This document shows positions 2,975 to 39,885 of a DNA stretch of 64,000 nucleotides, piece by piece (the stretch's first letter is position 1; each line of letters begins with the position of its first letter). Location: NCBI GenBank assembly GCA_018992685.1, contig JACVGT010000018.1, positions 224,001-288,000 on the forward strand. The letters run 5' to 3'. The translations under genes and the position numbers were made by a program. Below the pieces are notes generated by a model, which saw only the letters and a program-made list of their open reading frames with translations, did not search any database and was not told the DNA's origin. This DNA comes from Theionarchaea archaeon. GTDB taxonomy: Archaea; Methanobacteriota_B; Thermococci; Methanofastidiosales; SZ-28-30.

Positions 2975-4111
2975 ATGAAGAAGCTGAAGCTTTACGACTG
3001 GCACACGGCACATGCCAAAATGGGCGAATATGCTGGCTGGCACATGCCCCTATGGTATTCTTCAGTGAAAAATGAACATCTGGCAGTGAGAAACAATGTG
3101 GGAATATTCGACGTCTCCCACATGACGGAGATCTATGTAGGAGGGAAGGATGCCCTCAAATTCCTGCAGTATGTGGCAACTGCTGATGTGTCAATTCCTC
3201 CCCCCATATCTACCACCTACACGACCTTCCTCAATGAAAGGGGTGGAATTAAGGATGAAGGACTTATTTACAACCTTGGCGACAAGTACATGATTGTGTG
3301 TGATGCAGTAGCTATGGAAAAGCTGTACTCCTGGCTGATGTCCCTGAAAGGGGCTGCTTCTCTAGCCGGTGATCTTGATGTAGGTATTACTAATAAGACT
3401 TTTGACATCTCATTACTTTCGGTTCAGGGCCCCAAAGCCCGTGCCATAGCTGAGAAGCTTTTTTCCATCGACATTCAGGATTTGTGGTGGTTCCAGTGCC
3501 GGGAAACAGAGTACAAAGGCGAACCCGTTCTCCTGTCGAAATCAGGATACACTGGCGAGAATGGATTTGAGCTCTTTGTGGAGATGGATCCTTTACCCTT
3601 ATGGGAGAACCTACTGGAGCTGGGGGCAGCGCCTTGTGGACTTGCCACGCGGGACACCACCAGAATTGAGGCCGGATACACGTTATATGGTCATGAAACC
3701 ATGGAAAAACAGGTTCTTTCCCAGCCGTACGATGAATACACACCCCTCCATGCTGGGTTCCACCTGTGGGAATTCTCCCCCATCAAATGGGAAAAGGACT
3801 TCGTTGGAAAGGAAGCACTGGAAATCCAGAAACGAATGGGTATTGACAAGAATCTTATCCATCTGGAGATGGTAGACAGGGGAATCCCCAGAGAGGGATA
3901 CATCATCACAAAGGCTGGAACCCCCATCGGGGAGGTAACCAGCGGGACACAATCAGTGATAACAGGAAAGGGAATTGCCATTGGATACAGTTCTGAAGGC
4001 AAACCTGGAGAATCAGTGGAAATCATTATAAGGGAAGAACCAAGGAAAGCAACCATAGTGACGCCGCCCTTTTACGACCCCAAGAAATATGGAGCATTCA
4101 GAGAGGTGTGA
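2975..4111 (+). CDS. gcvT: Glycine cleavage system aminomethyltransferase (T protein)
   Basis: AGWHMPLWYS, EHLAVRNNVGIFDVSHM, SGYTGENGFE, RIEAGYTLYG. Adjacent to gcvH. Confidence 0.95.
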   Translation: MKKLKLYDWHTAHAKMGEYAGWHMPLWYSSVKNEHLAVRNNVGIFDVSHMTEIYVGGKDALKFLQYVATADVSIPPPISTTYTTFLNERGGIKDEGLIYNLGDKYMIVCDAVAMEKLYSWLMSLKGAASLAGDLDVGITNKTFDISLLSVQGPKARAIAEKLFSIDIQDLWWFQCRETEYKGEPVLLSKSGYTGENGFELFVEMDPLPLWENLLELGAAPCGLATRDTTRIEAGYTLYGHETMEKQVLSQPYDEYTPLHAGFHLWEFSPIKWEKDFVGKEALEIQKRMGIDKNLIHLEMVDRGIPREGYIITKAGTPIGEVTSGTQSVITGKGIAIGYSSEGKPGESVEIIIREEPRKATIVTPPFYDPKKYGAFREV

Positions 4112-8199: not shown

Positions 8200-9129
8200 A
8201 TGGAACTGGTAGATCGACTCCTGGCAGGAGACAGAAGGGCCTGCGCCCGCCTCATCACCCTGGTGGAGAACGAGGCCCCGGAAGCACAACAAGCACTCAA
8301 AGAAATTCATCCCCATACCGGGAAAGCACATGTAATCGGGGTAACAGGTCCTCCAGGAGCGGGAAAATCCAGTCTGGTGGACAAACTCACCCAGTATTAT
8401 CGGGAACAGGGAAAGACCGTTGGAGTCATCGCAGTTGATCCTTCCTCGCCTTTTACAGGTGGTGCTCTCCTGGGGGACAGGATCAGGATGCAAGAAAGAT
8501 CCACAGACCCTGGCGTGTTTATCAGAAGCATGGGTACACGGGGTCACATGGGGGGACTGGCCCTCACCACAAAAGATGCTATCAAGATTCTGGATGCATT
8601 TGGTAAGGATATTATCCTTGTTGAGACGGTGGGGACTGGCCAGGATGAGATAGACATCATAAGAGCTGCAGATACCGTACTGGTGGTGACGATGCCCAGT
8701 CTAGGAGATGATATCCAGGCTATAAAGGCCGGAATCTTGGAGATTGGAGATATTTTTGTGGTTAACAAGGCAGACCTCGATTTTGTGGATAAGGCAGTAA
8801 TGGAACTGGAAATGATGCTGGATTTCAATTCAGGTAAGGGGTGGCGTCCTCCAGTGGTGAGGACTGTGGCCAACATGGGGGGAGGTATTGAGGAACTGGC
8901 TGAGGCTATTCAGGCACACATTGAATACTTGAAGAAAGAAGGTCTCTATGAGGAGAAAAGGAGACTGAAGGTTGAGATGGAACTCCTGGAAGTACTGAAC
9001 AGACGTGTTGTCAAGGAAGTCCTTGAAAAAGCCAAAAAAACCAATGAATTCGACAGGTTGGTTGATCTAATACTGGAACGAGAGACAGACTGTTATTCAG
9101 CAGCAGAAACCCTTCTGCAAAAGAAATGA
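8200..9129 (+). CDS. meaB: MeaB/ArgK GTPase metallochaperone
   Basis: GPPGAGKSS, VDPSSPFTGGALLGDRIRM, ETVGTGQDE, NKAD. Follows the mutase small subunit. Confidence 0.93.
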   Translation: MELVDRLLAGDRRACARLITLVENEAPEAQQALKEIHPHTGKAHVIGVTGPPGAGKSSLVDKLTQYYREQGKTVGVIAVDPSSPFTGGALLGDRIRMQERSTDPGVFIRSMGTRGHMGGLALTTKDAIKILDAFGKDIILVETVGTGQDEIDIIRAADTVLVVTMPSLGDDIQAIKAGILEIGDIFVVNKADLDFVDKAVMELEMMLDFNSGKGWRPPVVRTVANMGGGIEELAEAIQAHIEYLKKEGLYEEKRRLKVEMELLEVLNRRVVKEVLEKAKKTNEFDRLVDLILERETDCYSAAETLLQKK

Positions 9130-9277
9130 AATCCCCTTGCCTCTCATCATCTGAGAAAATGGCATTATCTTGTATGATTGATTGCACTGTTACCTGACAT
9201 CGTTGAAAAGAAGAACATGGATTCGGAAACAGGTTGACATTTTGGTGACAAAAGATTTATAAGGCGTAATCCGTTCT

Positions 9278-19847: not shown

Positions 19848-21269
19848 ATGAAACGTACCTTCATCCTTCTCATCATAATATCAGGATGCATTGGCCAGCA
19901 ACAGCTCTCTTTTCAGTCCTGCAGTCCAGCAGAACAGGCTGTGACAATCGTCGAGGGAGAAGAACTGGAATTTTCCTGCATATTAACAGAGCCACAGAAT
20001 GCATCGTATACGTGGCTCGTGGATGGAGAAATAGTTTCACAACTCAGCTCCTTCACGTTCAGCGAAGAGCCAGGGGCCTATACGGTTGCCTTGGAAGTTA
20101 CCAATGGGAGAAAGACTATTTCCAATGGATGGGAAATCACTGTTGAAGAGTCCCCAGAATCATTGGATTTTCCAGCAATTGAATCAAGAGTGGAAGTTAT
20201 TCGTGGATTGAAGTTCTTGGAACCGGTGAGAAGGGTTATTATAGGTAGAATGGAGATGCGAGAGAACTTCCTTGAGAGTATGCAGGAAGAGAAGGAAGCT
20301 ATAGAAATAGAACAGAAAGTGTATGAAGCCCTCCATGTATGGAATCCTGAAGACAGTCTTTTCCAGGTACACGTAGATGTCCTGACTGAACAGGTTGCAA
20401 GTTACTACGACACAGGAGATCACACATTCTATCAGGTGGTCGATCTAGGCAGCCCTCTTGCATACCGGGAGTTTATTGCCTCCCACGAACTAATCCATGC
20501 CCTTCAGGACCAACATGACTATCTGGACTTTGATACAGAGAACGATGATGAGTACCTAGCATTTCTCTGTCTTGTGGAAGGGGATGCTCTCTTCCACGAA
20601 TATGAATACTTGTACAAGATGCCCTATCAGAAGCAGGGAGCCATATTCAATTATATAAAGAATCTCAATGTGCCGGTTGTCAATTCATTTCTGGAGAATC
20701 TGCTGACAGTGCGGTATGATCTTGGAATCAATTTCATTATCGAAATGAGGATGATTAGTATTGACAGCCTGTACGAGAGACTGCCGTCATCTACAGAGCA
20801 GATCATTCATCCAGATAAATATATGTCAAATGAACAGCCAATTCTCTCAGATGTCCCTGTTATGCCGGGGTGGGAACTTATCGCTGAAAATACGCTGGGA
20901 GAAGCTTTCATCGCTACCGTTTTGAAAGAATACCTTGATGCTGAACAGGCAGATGCTGCTGCTTCCGGCTGGGGCGGAGATTCATATGGCTACTATGAAT
21001 GGCTAGATGAGTACCTTTTCATCATAAATAGTTACTGGGATACTGAAGAGGATGCTTCAGAGTTCTTCATAGCGTACTACGATTTTACTGCTTCATGGAG
21101 CAATGGAATAGTGAAGAAGAGTGGCTCAACCATGTATGAGATACCCACAGGATTCATCTCCTTTGTGTGGAAAGGGAATCAGGTTACTGTAATAGAGGCA
21201 TCCTCCCGGGAAGCTGTTGAACAAGCGCTTTCTGTGCTGGGTGGGAACTCCACGGTAGATTTCTGCTAG
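19848..21269 (+). CDS. Surface lipoprotein with PKD-like domain and zincin-type HExxH domain
   Basis: Lipobox IISGC, YTWLVDG/PGAYTV.LEV PKD-like strands, HELIH and EGDA motifs, PSSTEQIIHP, GWGGD. Confidence 0.7.
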   Translation: MKRTFILLIIISGCIGQQQLSFQSCSPAEQAVTIVEGEELEFSCILTEPQNASYTWLVDGEIVSQLSSFTFSEEPGAYTVALEVTNGRKTISNGWEITVEESPESLDFPAIESRVEVIRGLKFLEPVRRVIIGRMEMRENFLESMQEEKEAIEIEQKVYEALHVWNPEDSLFQVHVDVLTEQVASYYDTGDHTFYQVVDLGSPLAYREFIASHELIHALQDQHDYLDFDTENDDEYLAFLCLVEGDALFHEYEYLYKMPYQKQGAIFNYIKNLNVPVVNSFLENLLTVRYDLGINFIIEMRMISIDSLYERLPSSTEQIIHPDKYMSNEQPILSDVPVMPGWELIAENTLGEAFIATVLKEYLDAEQADAAASGWGGDSYGYYEWLDEYLFIINSYWDTEEDASEFFIAYYDFTASWSNGIVKKSGSTMYEIPTGFISFVWKGNQVTVIEASSREAVEQALSVLGGNSTVDFC

Positions 21270-21410
21270 AATGGGGACAGTGAATCAGGTATTCAGGATC
21301 AATACTCTTCTCCGTCTCACTCTATCCTATCCCCTGATTGCACTATAGAGAATGTGACAACCTATCTGCCTTTGAGACTCCTTCTCGTGTACCTGCTACC
21401 AACAACTGCA

Positions 21411-21451
21411 ACCGAAAGCTTTATAAAGGAAAGTTACTACCAAAGTAGTAA
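21411..21451 (+). promoter_or_regulatory. Strong BRE-TATA promoter with palindromic operator
   Basis: ACCGAAAGC-TTTATAAA followed by the inverted repeat TTACTAC-caaa-GTAGTAA. Confidence 0.65.
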
Positions 21452-21530
21452 GTAATAAACACGACTTCAATCATATTCTTTCCTCCTTGGAGTCAGGCGA
21501 AATGTCTGGCTACCACCTTCTTTTCTTTTT
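21451..21530 (+). ncRNA. Candidate small RNA with anti-SD/anti-AUG loop
   Basis: Own promoter and no ORF. Stem GACTTCAA/TTGGAGTC with loop TCATATTCTTTCCTCC, hairpin CAGGC-GAAAT-GTCTG, then a T-tract. The next gene has its own TATA (~21637). Confidence 0.6.
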
Positions 21531-21663
21531 CTACAGATTACCACGGGACTCGTCAAAGGTATTGAGCGATCACGCCAGTGAGCCAGGCCATTCTGGAGGA
21601 ATTGAGCCACTAGACTGCTTCTGACGAGCAAAAGTATTTATAACAGATAACCACACGTGCACT

Positions 21664-22872
21664 ATGCGAGTTGCTTGGCTCCTCTGTCTGTGCGCCCTGA
21701 TGGCACAATCCCTGCCAGATCCCCTCGTGCTTGACTCCTTTGAAAGCCAAGAAGGATGGGATCAGGTGGCAGCAGAGGGATGCTCAATCAGGCTCACATT
21801 GGACAGGATGAATTCTCGGGAAGGTCAGGCCTCCATTCGGATTGAAGCTCAATTTCCAGAAGGCTGTGAAGAAGGACGATGTTACGCAGGGATGACGCGC
21901 AGAGTATCTGGATTTGAAGGATACCACTTTTTCAGATTTTGGATAAAGCCGGATGCTGCAGCATCCAATGCAGTTTTTGCAATCCATCTAGCCATTTCAG
22001 GAGGCAGGGAAGGGTTTTGCCTTGTCCCTCTGGACCAGACAGGATGGCATCTAGTTACTGTTTCTTTCACGGACTTCGAAAGTGACAAAAAGGAAACCAT
22101 ATCCTTTTCACCCGGTGACATTGAAGCTGTTTCCTTACTTTTGGCATCAAACAAGGCAATGAAAACAGTGATCAATGTCGACGAGCTTCTGGTGCTGCAG
22201 GATTCCAATGGAAATGGAATTCCTGACAAAGATGAGACCAATATGCTTGAGGCAGCAAGAAATTCCGAACAAATGGCAGATCGGTACTATGAAAACGAGG
22301 ACTATGAGAAAGCAAGGAAATACTACGAGGAAACCAGAAGTCTCTATCAGAAGGCAGGGAATGCTGAAAAGGCCCAGGAAATGGACAAAAATGCCAAACA
22401 ATGTGTTGCTTTGCTGGAATATGAACAAGCAGAAGAGTCCTATGCTCAAGAGGATTACGCCAGCGCTATGGAAGCATATGAAAGAGCCAGGAGAGAATTT
22501 GTCCTTCTGGGAGACCTGGATATGGTAGGCATCATTGAAGAGCGACTGGGAGAACTGAGCGCCCTGACAGGAAAACCAACCTCACCCCCTCCAGCCAGAA
22601 CTGGTCTGCCTCCTGCCAGCGAGAGACCTCGAAGTGGTGGAGCAGGGGGACTGTTTCTAGTGCTGCTTCTGGTGGCTGTTGTGGGGGGAGGAGTGTACAT
22701 GTGGAAGTTCAGGAAGCCTGCTCAGCCAGAACCGGAAAAAGAGACGGAACCTGCCCTCCCTTCAGAAGGAAAAGCTGAAGAAATCCGCAAGTTGAAAGCT
22801 CGATTCGTATATGGCGAAATCACCAGAAAGGATTATGAAAAGAAATTGAGAGAATTGGAGGGCGAATCATAG
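21664..22872 (+). CDS. Membrane-anchored surface protein (carbohydrate-binding-like domain, TPR-like helices, TM, SHOCT-like tail)
   Basis: Signal peptide, beta-sandwich with GWHLVTVSFTDF, DSNGNGIPD motif, helical repeats, TM segment, C-terminal GEITRKDYEKK. Confidence 0.65.
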   Translation: MRVAWLLCLCALMAQSLPDPLVLDSFESQEGWDQVAAEGCSIRLTLDRMNSREGQASIRIEAQFPEGCEEGRCYAGMTRRVSGFEGYHFFRFWIKPDAAASNAVFAIHLAISGGREGFCLVPLDQTGWHLVTVSFTDFESDKKETISFSPGDIEAVSLLLASNKAMKTVINVDELLVLQDSNGNGIPDKDETNMLEAARNSEQMADRYYENEDYEKARKYYEETRSLYQKAGNAEKAQEMDKNAKQCVALLEYEQAEESYAQEDYASAMEAYERARREFVLLGDLDMVGIIEERLGELSALTGKPTSPPPARTGLPPASERPRSGGAGGLFLVLLLVAVVGGGVYMWKFRKPAQPEPEKETEPALPSEGKAEEIRKLKARFVYGEITRKDYEKKLRELEGES

Positions 22873-38363: not shown

Positions 38364-39538
38364 TGACAATAAGGAAAATAAAAGAAGGCATATACTGGGC
38401 TGGGTCCCTGGATTGGGATCGCAGGCTTTTCGATGAATTGATCCCTCTTCCGGATGGTACTACCTACAATTCGTATATTGTAGAAGGTGAGAAGACTGCG
38501 CTCATTGATACTGTCGATCCAACCAAAGGGCAAGAGCTGGTGGACAACCTCACTGCATGGGGAGGTTCCATCGATTTCGTTGTGGCAAACCATGCAGAAC
38601 AGGACCATTCAGGGTCTATACCAAGAGTACTGACGCTTTTCCCCCACGCCAAGGTAGTAACGAATTCCAAGTGCAAGAACATGCTCATGGATCTGTTGTT
38701 AATCCCTGAGGAAAAATTCTTGACAGTCAATGATGGTGAGACGCTCTCTCTGGGGAACAGGACGCTGCAGTTCTTTATGACTCCCTGGGTCCACTGGCCA
38801 GAAACGATGGTCACTTACCTGAAGGAGGAAAGAATCTTATTCAGTTGTGATTTCCTTGGCTCCCACCTGGCAGCCAGCCACCTATTCGCTCGAGACAAGG
38901 AAAAGGTGTTTGAATCTGCCAAGAGGTACTATGCTGAGATCATGATGCCCTTCAGAACCAGCATTAGAAGTCACCTGGAGAAACTTGATGCTCTCACAGT
39001 TAATATTGTTGCGCCCAGCCACGGTCCTCTGCATGATGAACCGCACTTCATCCTGGACTGCTACAGGGAATGGGTTTCCGACACGGTGAAGAACGAAGTT
39101 GTCCTCCCTTTTGTGTCCATGCATCAGAGCACCCGGGCCATGGTGGACTATTTAGTTGACGCACTCATTGATCGAAACATCACCGTTAAACCTTTCAATC
39201 TGATCCAAACAGACATCGGAGAGCTGGCCAAGGCGCTGGTCGATGCCGCCACCCTGGTGATCGCATGCCCAACAGTCCTTGCAGGACCTCACCCTGCAGC
39301 TGTGTATGCTGCATACCTGGCCGGCGCGCTCCGGCCCAAGACCAGGATCGTAGGTATTATTGGATCCTATGGGTGGGGAGGAAAGTCAGTGGAAACCCTC
39401 AGCCAACTGATTCAGAATCTCACAGTTGAAGTCCTCGATCCTGTGCTGATAAAGGGCTATCCTGAGCAGGAGGACTTCAGATTGCTGGAAAATCTGGCAG
39501 ACGAAATCCTTAAAAAGCACAAAGCACTAAATATATGA
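38363..39538 (+). CDS. fprA: Flavodiiron protein FprA
   Basis: GTTYNSY, NHAEQDHSG, PWVHWPE, APSHG, flavodoxin domain GSYGWGG. Confidence 0.95.
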   Translation: MTIRKIKEGIYWAGSLDWDRRLFDELIPLPDGTTYNSYIVEGEKTALIDTVDPTKGQELVDNLTAWGGSIDFVVANHAEQDHSGSIPRVLTLFPHAKVVTNSKCKNMLMDLLLIPEEKFLTVNDGETLSLGNRTLQFFMTPWVHWPETMVTYLKEERILFSCDFLGSHLAASHLFARDKEKVFESAKRYYAEIMMPFRTSIRSHLEKLDALTVNIVAPSHGPLHDEPHFILDCYREWVSDTVKNEVVLPFVSMHQSTRAMVDYLVDALIDRNITVKPFNLIQTDIGELAKALVDAATLVIACPTVLAGPHPAAVYAAYLAGALRPKTRIVGIIGSYGWGGKSVETLSQLIQNLTVEVLDPVLIKGYPEQEDFRLLENLADEILKKHKALNI

Positions 39539-39550
39539 GGAGAAAAGAAT

Positions 39551-39885
39551 ATGGAAGAGAAAATGCCTTTGATTGGGGATACCTTCCCTCAGGTAGAAGT
39601 GGCGACGACACGTGGTAGAAAAACTTTACCTGATGCATATTCAGGTAGGTGGGAGGTCTTTTTCAGTCACCCTGCTGATTTTATACCAGTGTACACTGCT
39701 GAATTCGTGGCTTTTCAGAAGAAATGTAACCAGTTCAACCCTCTGAATCGTGGATTTATTGGGCTGAGAGTGAATCAGGTATTTTCTCACCTCAGATGGG
39801 TCGGATGGATCAATCAGATGAAGAAACTGCCCTGAAGAGAACCAGGGAGTACCAGTAGCATGACTGGTCCCGCCATAAGAAGCAA
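39551..39885 (+). pseudogene. Decayed peroxiredoxin with internal deletion
   Basis: N-terminal [15 protein letters not shown] (peroxidatic Cys lost), early stop, then in another frame the C-terminal remnant [11 protein letters not shown]. Confidence 0.8.

Follow-up and report, generated by a model that had tools for sequence, protein, structure and literature searches.

A probable small regulatory RNA gene with a seed complementary to translation start regions in an uncultured sediment archaeon

Archaeal small RNAs of known mechanism are few and come from cultured models (Methanosarcina, Haloferax, Sulfolobus). When a short intergenic stretch of an uncultured archaeon carries a promoter of its own and lacks an evident protein, can it be recognized as a small RNA gene, and which messages would such an RNA act on? 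The locus described here raises both questions. It lies in a 64,000-nucleotide contig stretch (hereafter the window) from the genome of a Theionarchaea archaeon (G000), where a 395-bp gap separates the plus-strand genes 19701/19848-21269 and 21664-22872, and an archaeal-type promoter lies inside the gap. An initial annotation proposed that the promoter drives a repressor-controlled, trans-acting small RNA, analogous to the bacterial RyhB, which blocks translation of an iron and oxidative-stress operon elsewhere in the window. Comparison with related genomes leads us to conclude that this locus of an uncultured sediment archaeon is very probably a gene for a small regulatory RNA not described before, and that its most likely targets are cell-envelope genes, with a peroxiredoxin as a possible further one.

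The predicted RNA and its conservation

The promoter, as read from the sequence, consists of a BRE-like element, ccgaaagc (21412-21419, plus strand), and a TATA box, TTTATAAA (21420-21427, plus strand), in an orientation that directs plus-strand transcription. The same consensus, CCGAAA-NN-TTTATA, also precedes protein genes of G000. Downstream of it lies the palindrome TTACTAC-CAAA-GTAGTAA (21434-21451), which overlaps the predicted start site; the promoter and palindrome first described for this locus are thus both present (21412-21451). A scan for sigma-70 promoters and terminators returned nothing at the locus, as expected for an archaeal host. The two neighboring genes are leaderless and lack a Shine-Dalgarno (SD) sequence; in each, the ATG lies 27 nt downstream of the first T of the gene's TATA box. 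Equal spacing here would put the start of the RNA at about 21447-21450, within the palindrome's right half. The other end probably falls within a T-rich run (21518-21532, plus strand), giving a predicted RNA of about 80 nt (21447-21532, plus strand). Oligo-T terminates archaeal transcription, and a T-run follows the hairpin in nearly all aligned copies, so that the run at 21518-21532 is a probable terminator.

No ORF within the predicted RNA is conserved on either strand among the relatives compared, in agreement with the initial description of about 80 nt without a reading frame that end in a T-tract. The plus-strand ORF 21487-21624 (45 aa) was rejected as a candidate, since it has no equivalent start in relatives. 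Known RNA families do not account for the locus either: in the region 20500-22500 no Rfam family reaches an E value of 1 (best E, 4.9), Rfam 15 searched at E values up to 10 gives only chance-level miRNA and lncRNA matches (those that overlap are miRNA models with E values of 7 to 10), and a tRNA scan of the window found none. Six RNA runs were screened among metatranscriptomes, and words of the stretch occurred in one of them (share, 0.14). Mapping of four runs, as assembled contigs of ordinary metatranscriptomes and not as small-RNA libraries, gave one 199-nt contig, which lies in the downstream gene (21754-21952).

The minimum-free-energy fold divides the RNA into an unpaired 5' part and a single stable hairpin (21488-21515, plus strand; -14.3 kcal/mol, z -1.8), and 9 of 200 shuffled sequences fold as well. 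Two hairpins had been described, but the second is the DNA palindrome over the predicted start. A pyrimidine stretch, UCAUAUUCUUUCCUCCUU (21471-21488), contains the 16-nt seed CAUAUUCUUUCCUCCU (21472-21487, plus strand), which combines complements of a start codon, a spacer, and an SD sequence; it had been placed in a loop, and the fold moves it to the unpaired 5' part. The hairpin has a conserved 8-bp core (21491-21498 with 21504-21511), in which 89.3% of alignment cells are paired and both sides have changed in three of the eight pairs. Its covariation score is 0.273, versus 0.230 in shuffles, of which 8 of 500 reach 0.273; we regard this as modest support for the hairpin. Closer to the 5' end is the motif AAACACG (21457-21463, plus strand), which appears as UAAACACG in most alignment rows and for which we found no partner in G000 (blastn-short, antisense RNA), with no extended complement beyond a 17-mer.

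How widely is this unit distributed? A BLAST search with the intergenic region against 40 relatives gave seven matches. Four of these places have both promoter and palindrome, and they belong to other genomes of the same family (f1): one in the sister species (G001), two in G002, and one in G003. At three of the four, the BLAST match spans the promoter and operator only; the seed core CUUUCCUC lies downstream at all four, and a GC-rich hairpin with a T-tract at three. The other three matches (G007 twice, G037) cover only the promoter and precede ORFs. A pattern scan of the order for the TATA box, the operator, and CTTTCCTC hit all four f1 genomes, with one chance-like match among 30 others. 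It returned 7 loci in species genomes and 24 in metagenome contigs, most of the latter with the full architecture; L065/L088, L068/L085, L075, L081/L092, L082/L089, and L087 were set aside as chance matches.

Altogether 20 distinct copies were found and 18 were aligned, with L078 and the second L074 copy omitted as near-duplicates of other rows. The alignment comprises the window copy, the four loci of the three relatives, and 13 copies from metagenome contigs, so the conservation in relatives that was initially proposed as a check is seen for the whole unit in 18 distinct copies. Conservation is concentrated in three blocks: promoter, operator half-sites, and seed (CAUAUYCUUUCCUCC). The BRE/TATA region is nearly invariant in 17 of the 18 copies, and the aligned stretch of the eighteenth begins 3' of the promoter. 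The seed core is kept in all 18; it belonged to the search pattern for 13 of them, and not for the four loci of the relatives, which were found by BLAST on the promoter. Searches with a covariance model of the aligned copies recovered all four f1 genomes (84 to 91% complete) and none of 97 other genomes of the class. As far as searched, the RNA would be restricted to one family of uncultured archaea of the Thermococci/Methanofastidiosia type ("Theionarchaea").

The surroundings of the unit are partly conserved as well. In the window, a gene for a 522-aa PKD-domain protein is followed by the RNA and then by a gene for a 402-aa TPR-like membrane protein, and this arrangement recurs in L064/L079, L072, L074/L077, and L080. 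The flanking proteins are just 45 to 55% identical, and the non-coding unit is therefore held far tighter than neutral intergenic DNA. At three loci (L066, L072, and L074) the unit is present twice in tandem, and every copy has a promoter, operator, and T-tract of its own. The copies of G001, G002, and G003 sit elsewhere, near genes that, from their ORFs, would encode GDH, thioredoxin reductase, a KaiC-like protein, and an RNase P subunit. Judged by this conservation, the gene-like unit is beyond what chance would produce.

The operator and the genes it adjoins

If the unit is a gene, what controls it? Across the 18-copy alignment the palindrome has the form TTACTA-N6-TAGTAA, and its half-sites TACTA/TAGTA do not vary. 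Such constancy fits a site for a protein, though it does not prove one. With up to one mismatch allowed, G000 contains 12 operator sites; 10 of them are intergenic, in a genome of which gene calls make up 87%. The adjoining genes encode two giant surface proteins with CarboxypepD_reg domains, a T2SSE/PilB3-type ATPase, and other secreted proteins, and a gene for a Peptidase_MA-like protein lies near a looser site (C3:151190). In G000, G001, and G002, the operator also precedes an orthologous gene for a giant surface protein, with its distance from the TATA box unchanged.

Several further loci show related arrangements. Two paralogous giant surface-protein genes of G000 (C24:34500-34740 and 38890-39210) have 5' leaders of about 100 nt with motifs in common; one to three palindromes of the TTACTA-N6-TAGTAA type lie upstream of their promoters and not over the start site. 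In G007 (C43, about 3040-3120; L008), the same promoter consensus precedes a small feoA-like gene, with another palindrome, TTAGGTATACCTAA, at the operator position. This palindrome is one that we take to resemble DtxR/IdeR boxes, and the operator of the small RNA differs from it.

A gene for a 324-aa HTH regulator offered a lead to the protein that might bind the operator. Upstream of it (G000, C5:104895-105056; L104) is TTACTACATTACTGGTAA, which is also present in G001. In the same upstream region, the TATA box of the gene (C5:105056) is followed by a CTA-N6-TAG palindrome and then by UAAACACG, as in the small RNA. The lead weakened on closer comparison: the palindrome is missing from the G001 orthologue, and by a rough estimate two to three co-occurrences of palindrome and AAACACG are expected by chance in G000, where two were seen. 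Its family has 16 to 20 matches per genome in G001 and G002.

The seed and its candidate targets

It was tempting to connect the seed to the operon that first drew attention to it, and many of the observations made there hold. The annotation of the operon is as originally read (rubredoxin, an ODP/metallo-beta-lactamase flavodiiron-like protein, a truncated AhpC-TSA protein, and desulfoferrodoxin), and the start regions of rubredoxin and desulfoferrodoxin do contain AAGGAGG and UAUG. The pairing with the peroxiredoxin start region, GAGGAGAAAAGAAUAUGG (39537-39554, plus strand), extends over 18 nt and, counted by hand, comprises 15 Watson-Crick pairs, two G-U pairs, and one mismatch; the site has one mismatch to the 16-nt seed. 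This best target was also rightly called a pseudogene: a 94-aa remnant of a 213-aa protein, with the cysteine of PVCTTE lost in a sequence that reads PVYTAE. The remnant (39551-39832 of the window) matches residues 1-87 of the intact G001 protein (213 aa) at 74% identity; its peroxidatic cysteine is gone, and its SD sequence has one change. Complementarity to an SD sequence plus AUG is generic, however, and alone it cannot tie the RNA to the neighboring oxidative-stress operon.

We ranked the start regions of G000 by the RNAduplex energy of their pairing with the 26-nt seed region. The list of 2827 start regions was based on 2824 genes called with a simple codon-usage finder and includes rubredoxin, two S-layer genes, and C24:34736, added by hand where the finder had missed or misplaced a start; for the S-layer genes and C24:34736 the addition was post hoc, as they had already been noticed. 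These three hold ranks 1 (the right S-layer gene, -29.3 kcal/mol), 3 (C24:34736, -26.9 kcal/mol), and 6 (the left S-layer gene, -25.8 kcal/mol) of 2827. The peroxiredoxin remnant follows at rank 59 (-21.1 kcal/mol). The other operon genes lie much further down: desulfoferrodoxin at 692 (-14.9 kcal/mol), rubredoxin at 771 (-14.4 kcal/mol), and the flavodiiron gene at 1672 (-10.7 kcal/mol), or 613, 685, and 1304 among the 1856 SD-bearing genes. With three of its genes at ranks 692 to 1672, the operon as a whole does no better than chance, and the prediction that its ribosome-binding sites would stand out does not hold.

How much do such energies say about targets? For the real seed, the best energy is -29.3 kcal/mol and nine sites reach -25 or lower. 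In 25 full shuffles the best energy averaged -24.3 (sd 1.9), which the real seed beats. When CCUCC and CAU were held fixed, the best energy of 25 shuffles averaged -28.4 (sd 1.3; lowest, -31.6), and on average 6.5 sites reached -25 or lower. The comparison with shuffled controls suggested at the outset therefore comes out in the seed's favor against full shuffles, but not against those that keep the two motifs; as these pair equally well, the energy ranking singles out no targets. All that the thermodynamic ranking establishes is the anti-SD/anti-AUG character of the RNA. Run on the complete 5' part (39 nt), RNAduplex gives long gapped duplexes (C27:4133 is among the top matches), and the controls indicate that such energies are common.

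Exact matches are slightly more informative. The longest perfect complements in G000, 17 and 16 nt, lie at the two S-layer genes, on another contig; their assignment rests on PF05124 (E = 1.8e-14). The 16-nt seed sequence occurs four times in the genome, namely in this RNA, in a second promoter-driven unit (C10:8584), and as reverse complements at the two S-layer start regions. Together with a large surface protein of 1379 aa, the two S-layer genes (16 to 17 nt perfect) are the best target matches, and we treat them as candidates. They occupy the ends of the 21-kb contig C31 (1-240, minus strand; 20871-21110, plus strand), where two near-identical S-layer 5' ends face outward, with the coding start and the 16-nt start region in common and different DNA upstream. 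The assembly probably broke here in a multi-copy S-layer gene family.

The start-region sequence itself is unevenly distributed. Among the 230 GGAGG-N7-ATG sites of G000, 0.066 start regions with the spacer AAAGAAT would be expected. The complement of the seed has five neighbors within one mismatch in this genome, which is unexceptional: at least as many surround 19 of 230 other 15-mers from start regions. Outside the small RNA genes, the exact 15-mer GGAGGAAAGAATATG occurs 12 times in the four f1 genomes versus once in 30 other genomes of the order, counts that include paralogues and orthologues and so represent about six gene families in one lineage and not independent cases. Among relatives, G001 has it as the start region of S-layer genes and of the intact peroxiredoxin, and G002 has it at S-layer genes; G002 and G003 together add four other genes with this start region. 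The G002 S-layer genes with the exact 15-mer are two beyond those obtained by protein search. The S-layer genes that the protein search yielded in G002 and G003 have start regions unlike the complements of their own type-1 seeds, and these genes thus show no covariation with the seed.

Proposed mechanism, alternatives, and related systems

We consider it reasonably probable that the locus encodes a small RNA under the control of a repressor, which acts in trans by masking GGAGGAAAGNAUAUG-type start regions. The initial proposal of a repressor-controlled trans-acting RNA stands insofar as there is a separate, conserved, promoter-driven unit with an SD-plus-AUG complement; its link to iron and redox metabolism is unsupported. 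A strong BRE/TATA promoter would drive the gene, which a dimeric DNA-binding protein on TTACTA-N6-TAGTAA over the start site would most likely repress, and the same operator would control genes for cell-surface proteins. The unstructured 5' half would present the seed, and the GC-rich hairpin and U-tract would end the RNA and probably stabilize it. Pairing of the seed with an mRNA start region (SD, spacer, and start codon) would block the small ribosomal subunit and so lower translation. In G000 the leading target candidates are the two S-layer genes and the 1379-aa surface protein, and in the sister species a peroxiredoxin is a candidate. The C10 unit, a sibling with an identical seed and a different operator, would allow another signal to act on these targets. 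The architecture, its conservation, the synteny, and the complementarity are seen in the sequences, and it is from sequence that we infer transcription, the start site, the repressor, and any effect on translation.

Could the RNA nevertheless be a dedicated RyhB-like regulator that shuts down translation of the rubredoxin/flavodiiron/peroxiredoxin/desulfoferrodoxin operon? The peroxiredoxin gives this reading what appeal it has. The remnant pairs over 18 nt with a single mismatch and ranks 59th, and in G001 the intact gene carries the 15-mer unchanged and pairs perfectly over 17 nt with the sibling's seed; in G004, the only other relative in which an intact peroxiredoxin was found, the covariance model (R1) finds no copy of the RNA, and the peroxiredoxin start region is of a differing type, GGAGGTGAT. 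The match expected between the seed and an intact peroxiredoxin is seen, but in one genome only; the peroxiredoxin query gave no match in G002 or G003, both of which have the RNA. The remaining genes of the operon rank low, Rfam gives no match to RyhB, and the operator adjoins genes for surface proteins and a pilus ATPase instead of iron or redox genes and differs from the palindrome at the feoA-like gene of G007, so the analogy with RyhB is weak and a dedicated role in this operon seems quite unlikely. An RNA of low specificity, which on derepression would reduce translation across the board by binding many purine-rich starts or by competing for them with the tail of 16S rRNA, would explain why 106 of the 2827 start regions pair at -20 kcal/mol or better and why any pyrimidine-rich seed that keeps CCUCC and CAU behaves alike. 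At least two further promoter-driven units with UUUCCUCC in G000, one of which (C22) is kept in G001 and G002, point the same way. For generic anti-SD action, however, exact conservation of the spacer and CAU would be needless, and the sibling's 15-mer is exact across two genera and is the mirror image of a 15-mer for which start regions of this lineage are enriched; we judge such a global role unlikely.

Two other explanations place the function outside a trans-acting RNA. The element could be a cis-acting leader or attenuator of the co-oriented downstream gene (21664-22872), with the T-tract as a terminator that is read through conditionally, and the 402-aa gene is indeed co-oriented and syntenic with the element in G000, L072, L074/L077, and L079. 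But that gene has a BRE/TATA of its own 27 nt before its ATG, and no SD, at three syntenic loci (G000, L072, and L074), copies of the element also occur in unrelated contexts, and tandem copies each have their own promoter and terminator, all of which makes a leader very unlikely. Finally, the functional strand could be the minus strand, on which the reverse complement reads AAGGAGGAAAGAAUAUG and then 17 codons, a tiny ORF with a perfect SD and ATG that encodes 17 aa in the window; similar peptides (M-D-W-N-V-F-I...) were read by hand in some copies. The frame shrinks to 2 aa in G002 (C74) and 6 aa in G003 (C20), has no ATG in the other G002 copy (C28), and stops after two codons in L066 and L084, and the promoter faces the plus strand; a minus-strand peptide is thus extremely improbable. 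The preferred reading remains a repressor-controlled RNA that acts in trans on start regions.

Searches of the literature on Methanofastidiosa/Theionarchaea small RNAs turned up no description of such an RNA. RyhB is a bacterial, Fur-repressed small RNA of the iron-sparing response. The RNA predicted here is like it in being a putatively repressor-controlled small RNA with a single-stranded region that would pair at starts and a terminator hairpin with a U-tail; unlike RyhB, it has no homology to that RNA, its operator and neighborhood are not iron-related, and the iron/redox operon is unremarkable among its targets. To our knowledge there is no Hfq in the bacterial sense. In Firmicutes, RoxS/RsaE and FsrA use C-rich seeds in loops to target the SD sequences of many mRNAs, and they have related copies or siblings. 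The present family is similar in its pyrimidine-rich seed for G-rich SD sequences and in its multiple copies or siblings, but it is archaeal and has a single linear seed that reaches the start codon in place of loop motifs. PrrF1/PrrF2 and Qrr1-4 are sibling small RNAs in tandem or dispersed copies with the same seed, and the tandem pairs (L066, L072, and L074) and the C10 gene with its identical 16-mer resemble them in organization only, with no homology or pathway implied.

Closer comparisons come from archaea. Methanosarcina mazei sRNA154 and sRNA41 are described as trans-encoded small RNAs that mask ribosome-binding sites (PMC5867862), and they give the proposed mechanism an archaeal precedent. 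The RNA predicted here resembles them in being an intergenic archaeal small RNA with its own TATA promoter and an anti-RBS stretch proposed to block initiation on several mRNAs (PMC5867862). The present family differs from them in belonging to another archaeal lineage, in having no sequence relationship to them (no Rfam match), in a seed that also spans the spacer and start codon, in a palindromic operator common to surface-protein genes, and in being known from sequence alone. What defines it is comparison, namely promoter, operator, seed, hairpin, synteny, and tandem or sibling copies, and comparison thereby provides a concrete RNA, an operator, and a short list of candidate targets with the S-layer first.

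A broader idea is possible, and we put it forward only tentatively. Unrelated and probably abundant proteins may have converged on one exact start region of 15 to 17 nt, a post-transcriptional "start-region code" that sibling RNAs with the mirror-image seed would read under different operators. The proteins would include S-layer proteins, giant surface proteins, peroxiredoxin, and a permease-like protein. If this is true, several signals would converge on the output of cell-envelope and antioxidant proteins, and, with the type-1 operator also placed directly on surface-protein and pilus genes, the result would be a mixed transcriptional and post-transcriptional circuit for remodeling the cell surface.

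Other candidate RNA genes in G000 share parts of this architecture. The C10 sibling (C10:8520-8760, plus strand; L011, about 520-760) has the same BRE/TATA, and the place of the operator is taken by another palindrome, ATTGAT-T-ATCAAT; its body is longer and closes with a GGAGG/CCUCC hairpin and T-tract. It is conserved in G001 (C151), and in G003 (C38) its flanks have diverged; the 15-mer is exact in both. A third promoter-driven non-coding candidate (C22, about 20290-20460, minus strand; L013:380-570:-) combines an invariant AGACACACAGUAUCCUCUCCUUUUCCUCC with a long hairpin and a T-tract; its counterparts show 91% identity over 169 nt (G001) and 81% over 147 nt (G002). At two more places a strong promoter leads into UUUCCUCC and then a T-run or hairpin, namely at C23 (about 9100-9240, minus strand), matched at 88% over about 88 nt in G001, and at C3:107571-107700 (plus strand). 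Rfam 15 gave no match at the sibling and other candidate loci (L011, L013, L014, and L015). Arrangements that lead from a promoter to UUUCCUC number seven in G000, six of them intergenic, and were not counted as evidence. A 14-codon ORF (MFVTPMEGLHDHCL; C5:213694-213755) has a strong start region, one mismatch from the complement of the seed. The ORF is kept in three genomes, with orthologous places in G001 (C105) and G002 (C109, where it reads MMWISEEGLDDHCL), and it may encode a small protein or leader peptide.
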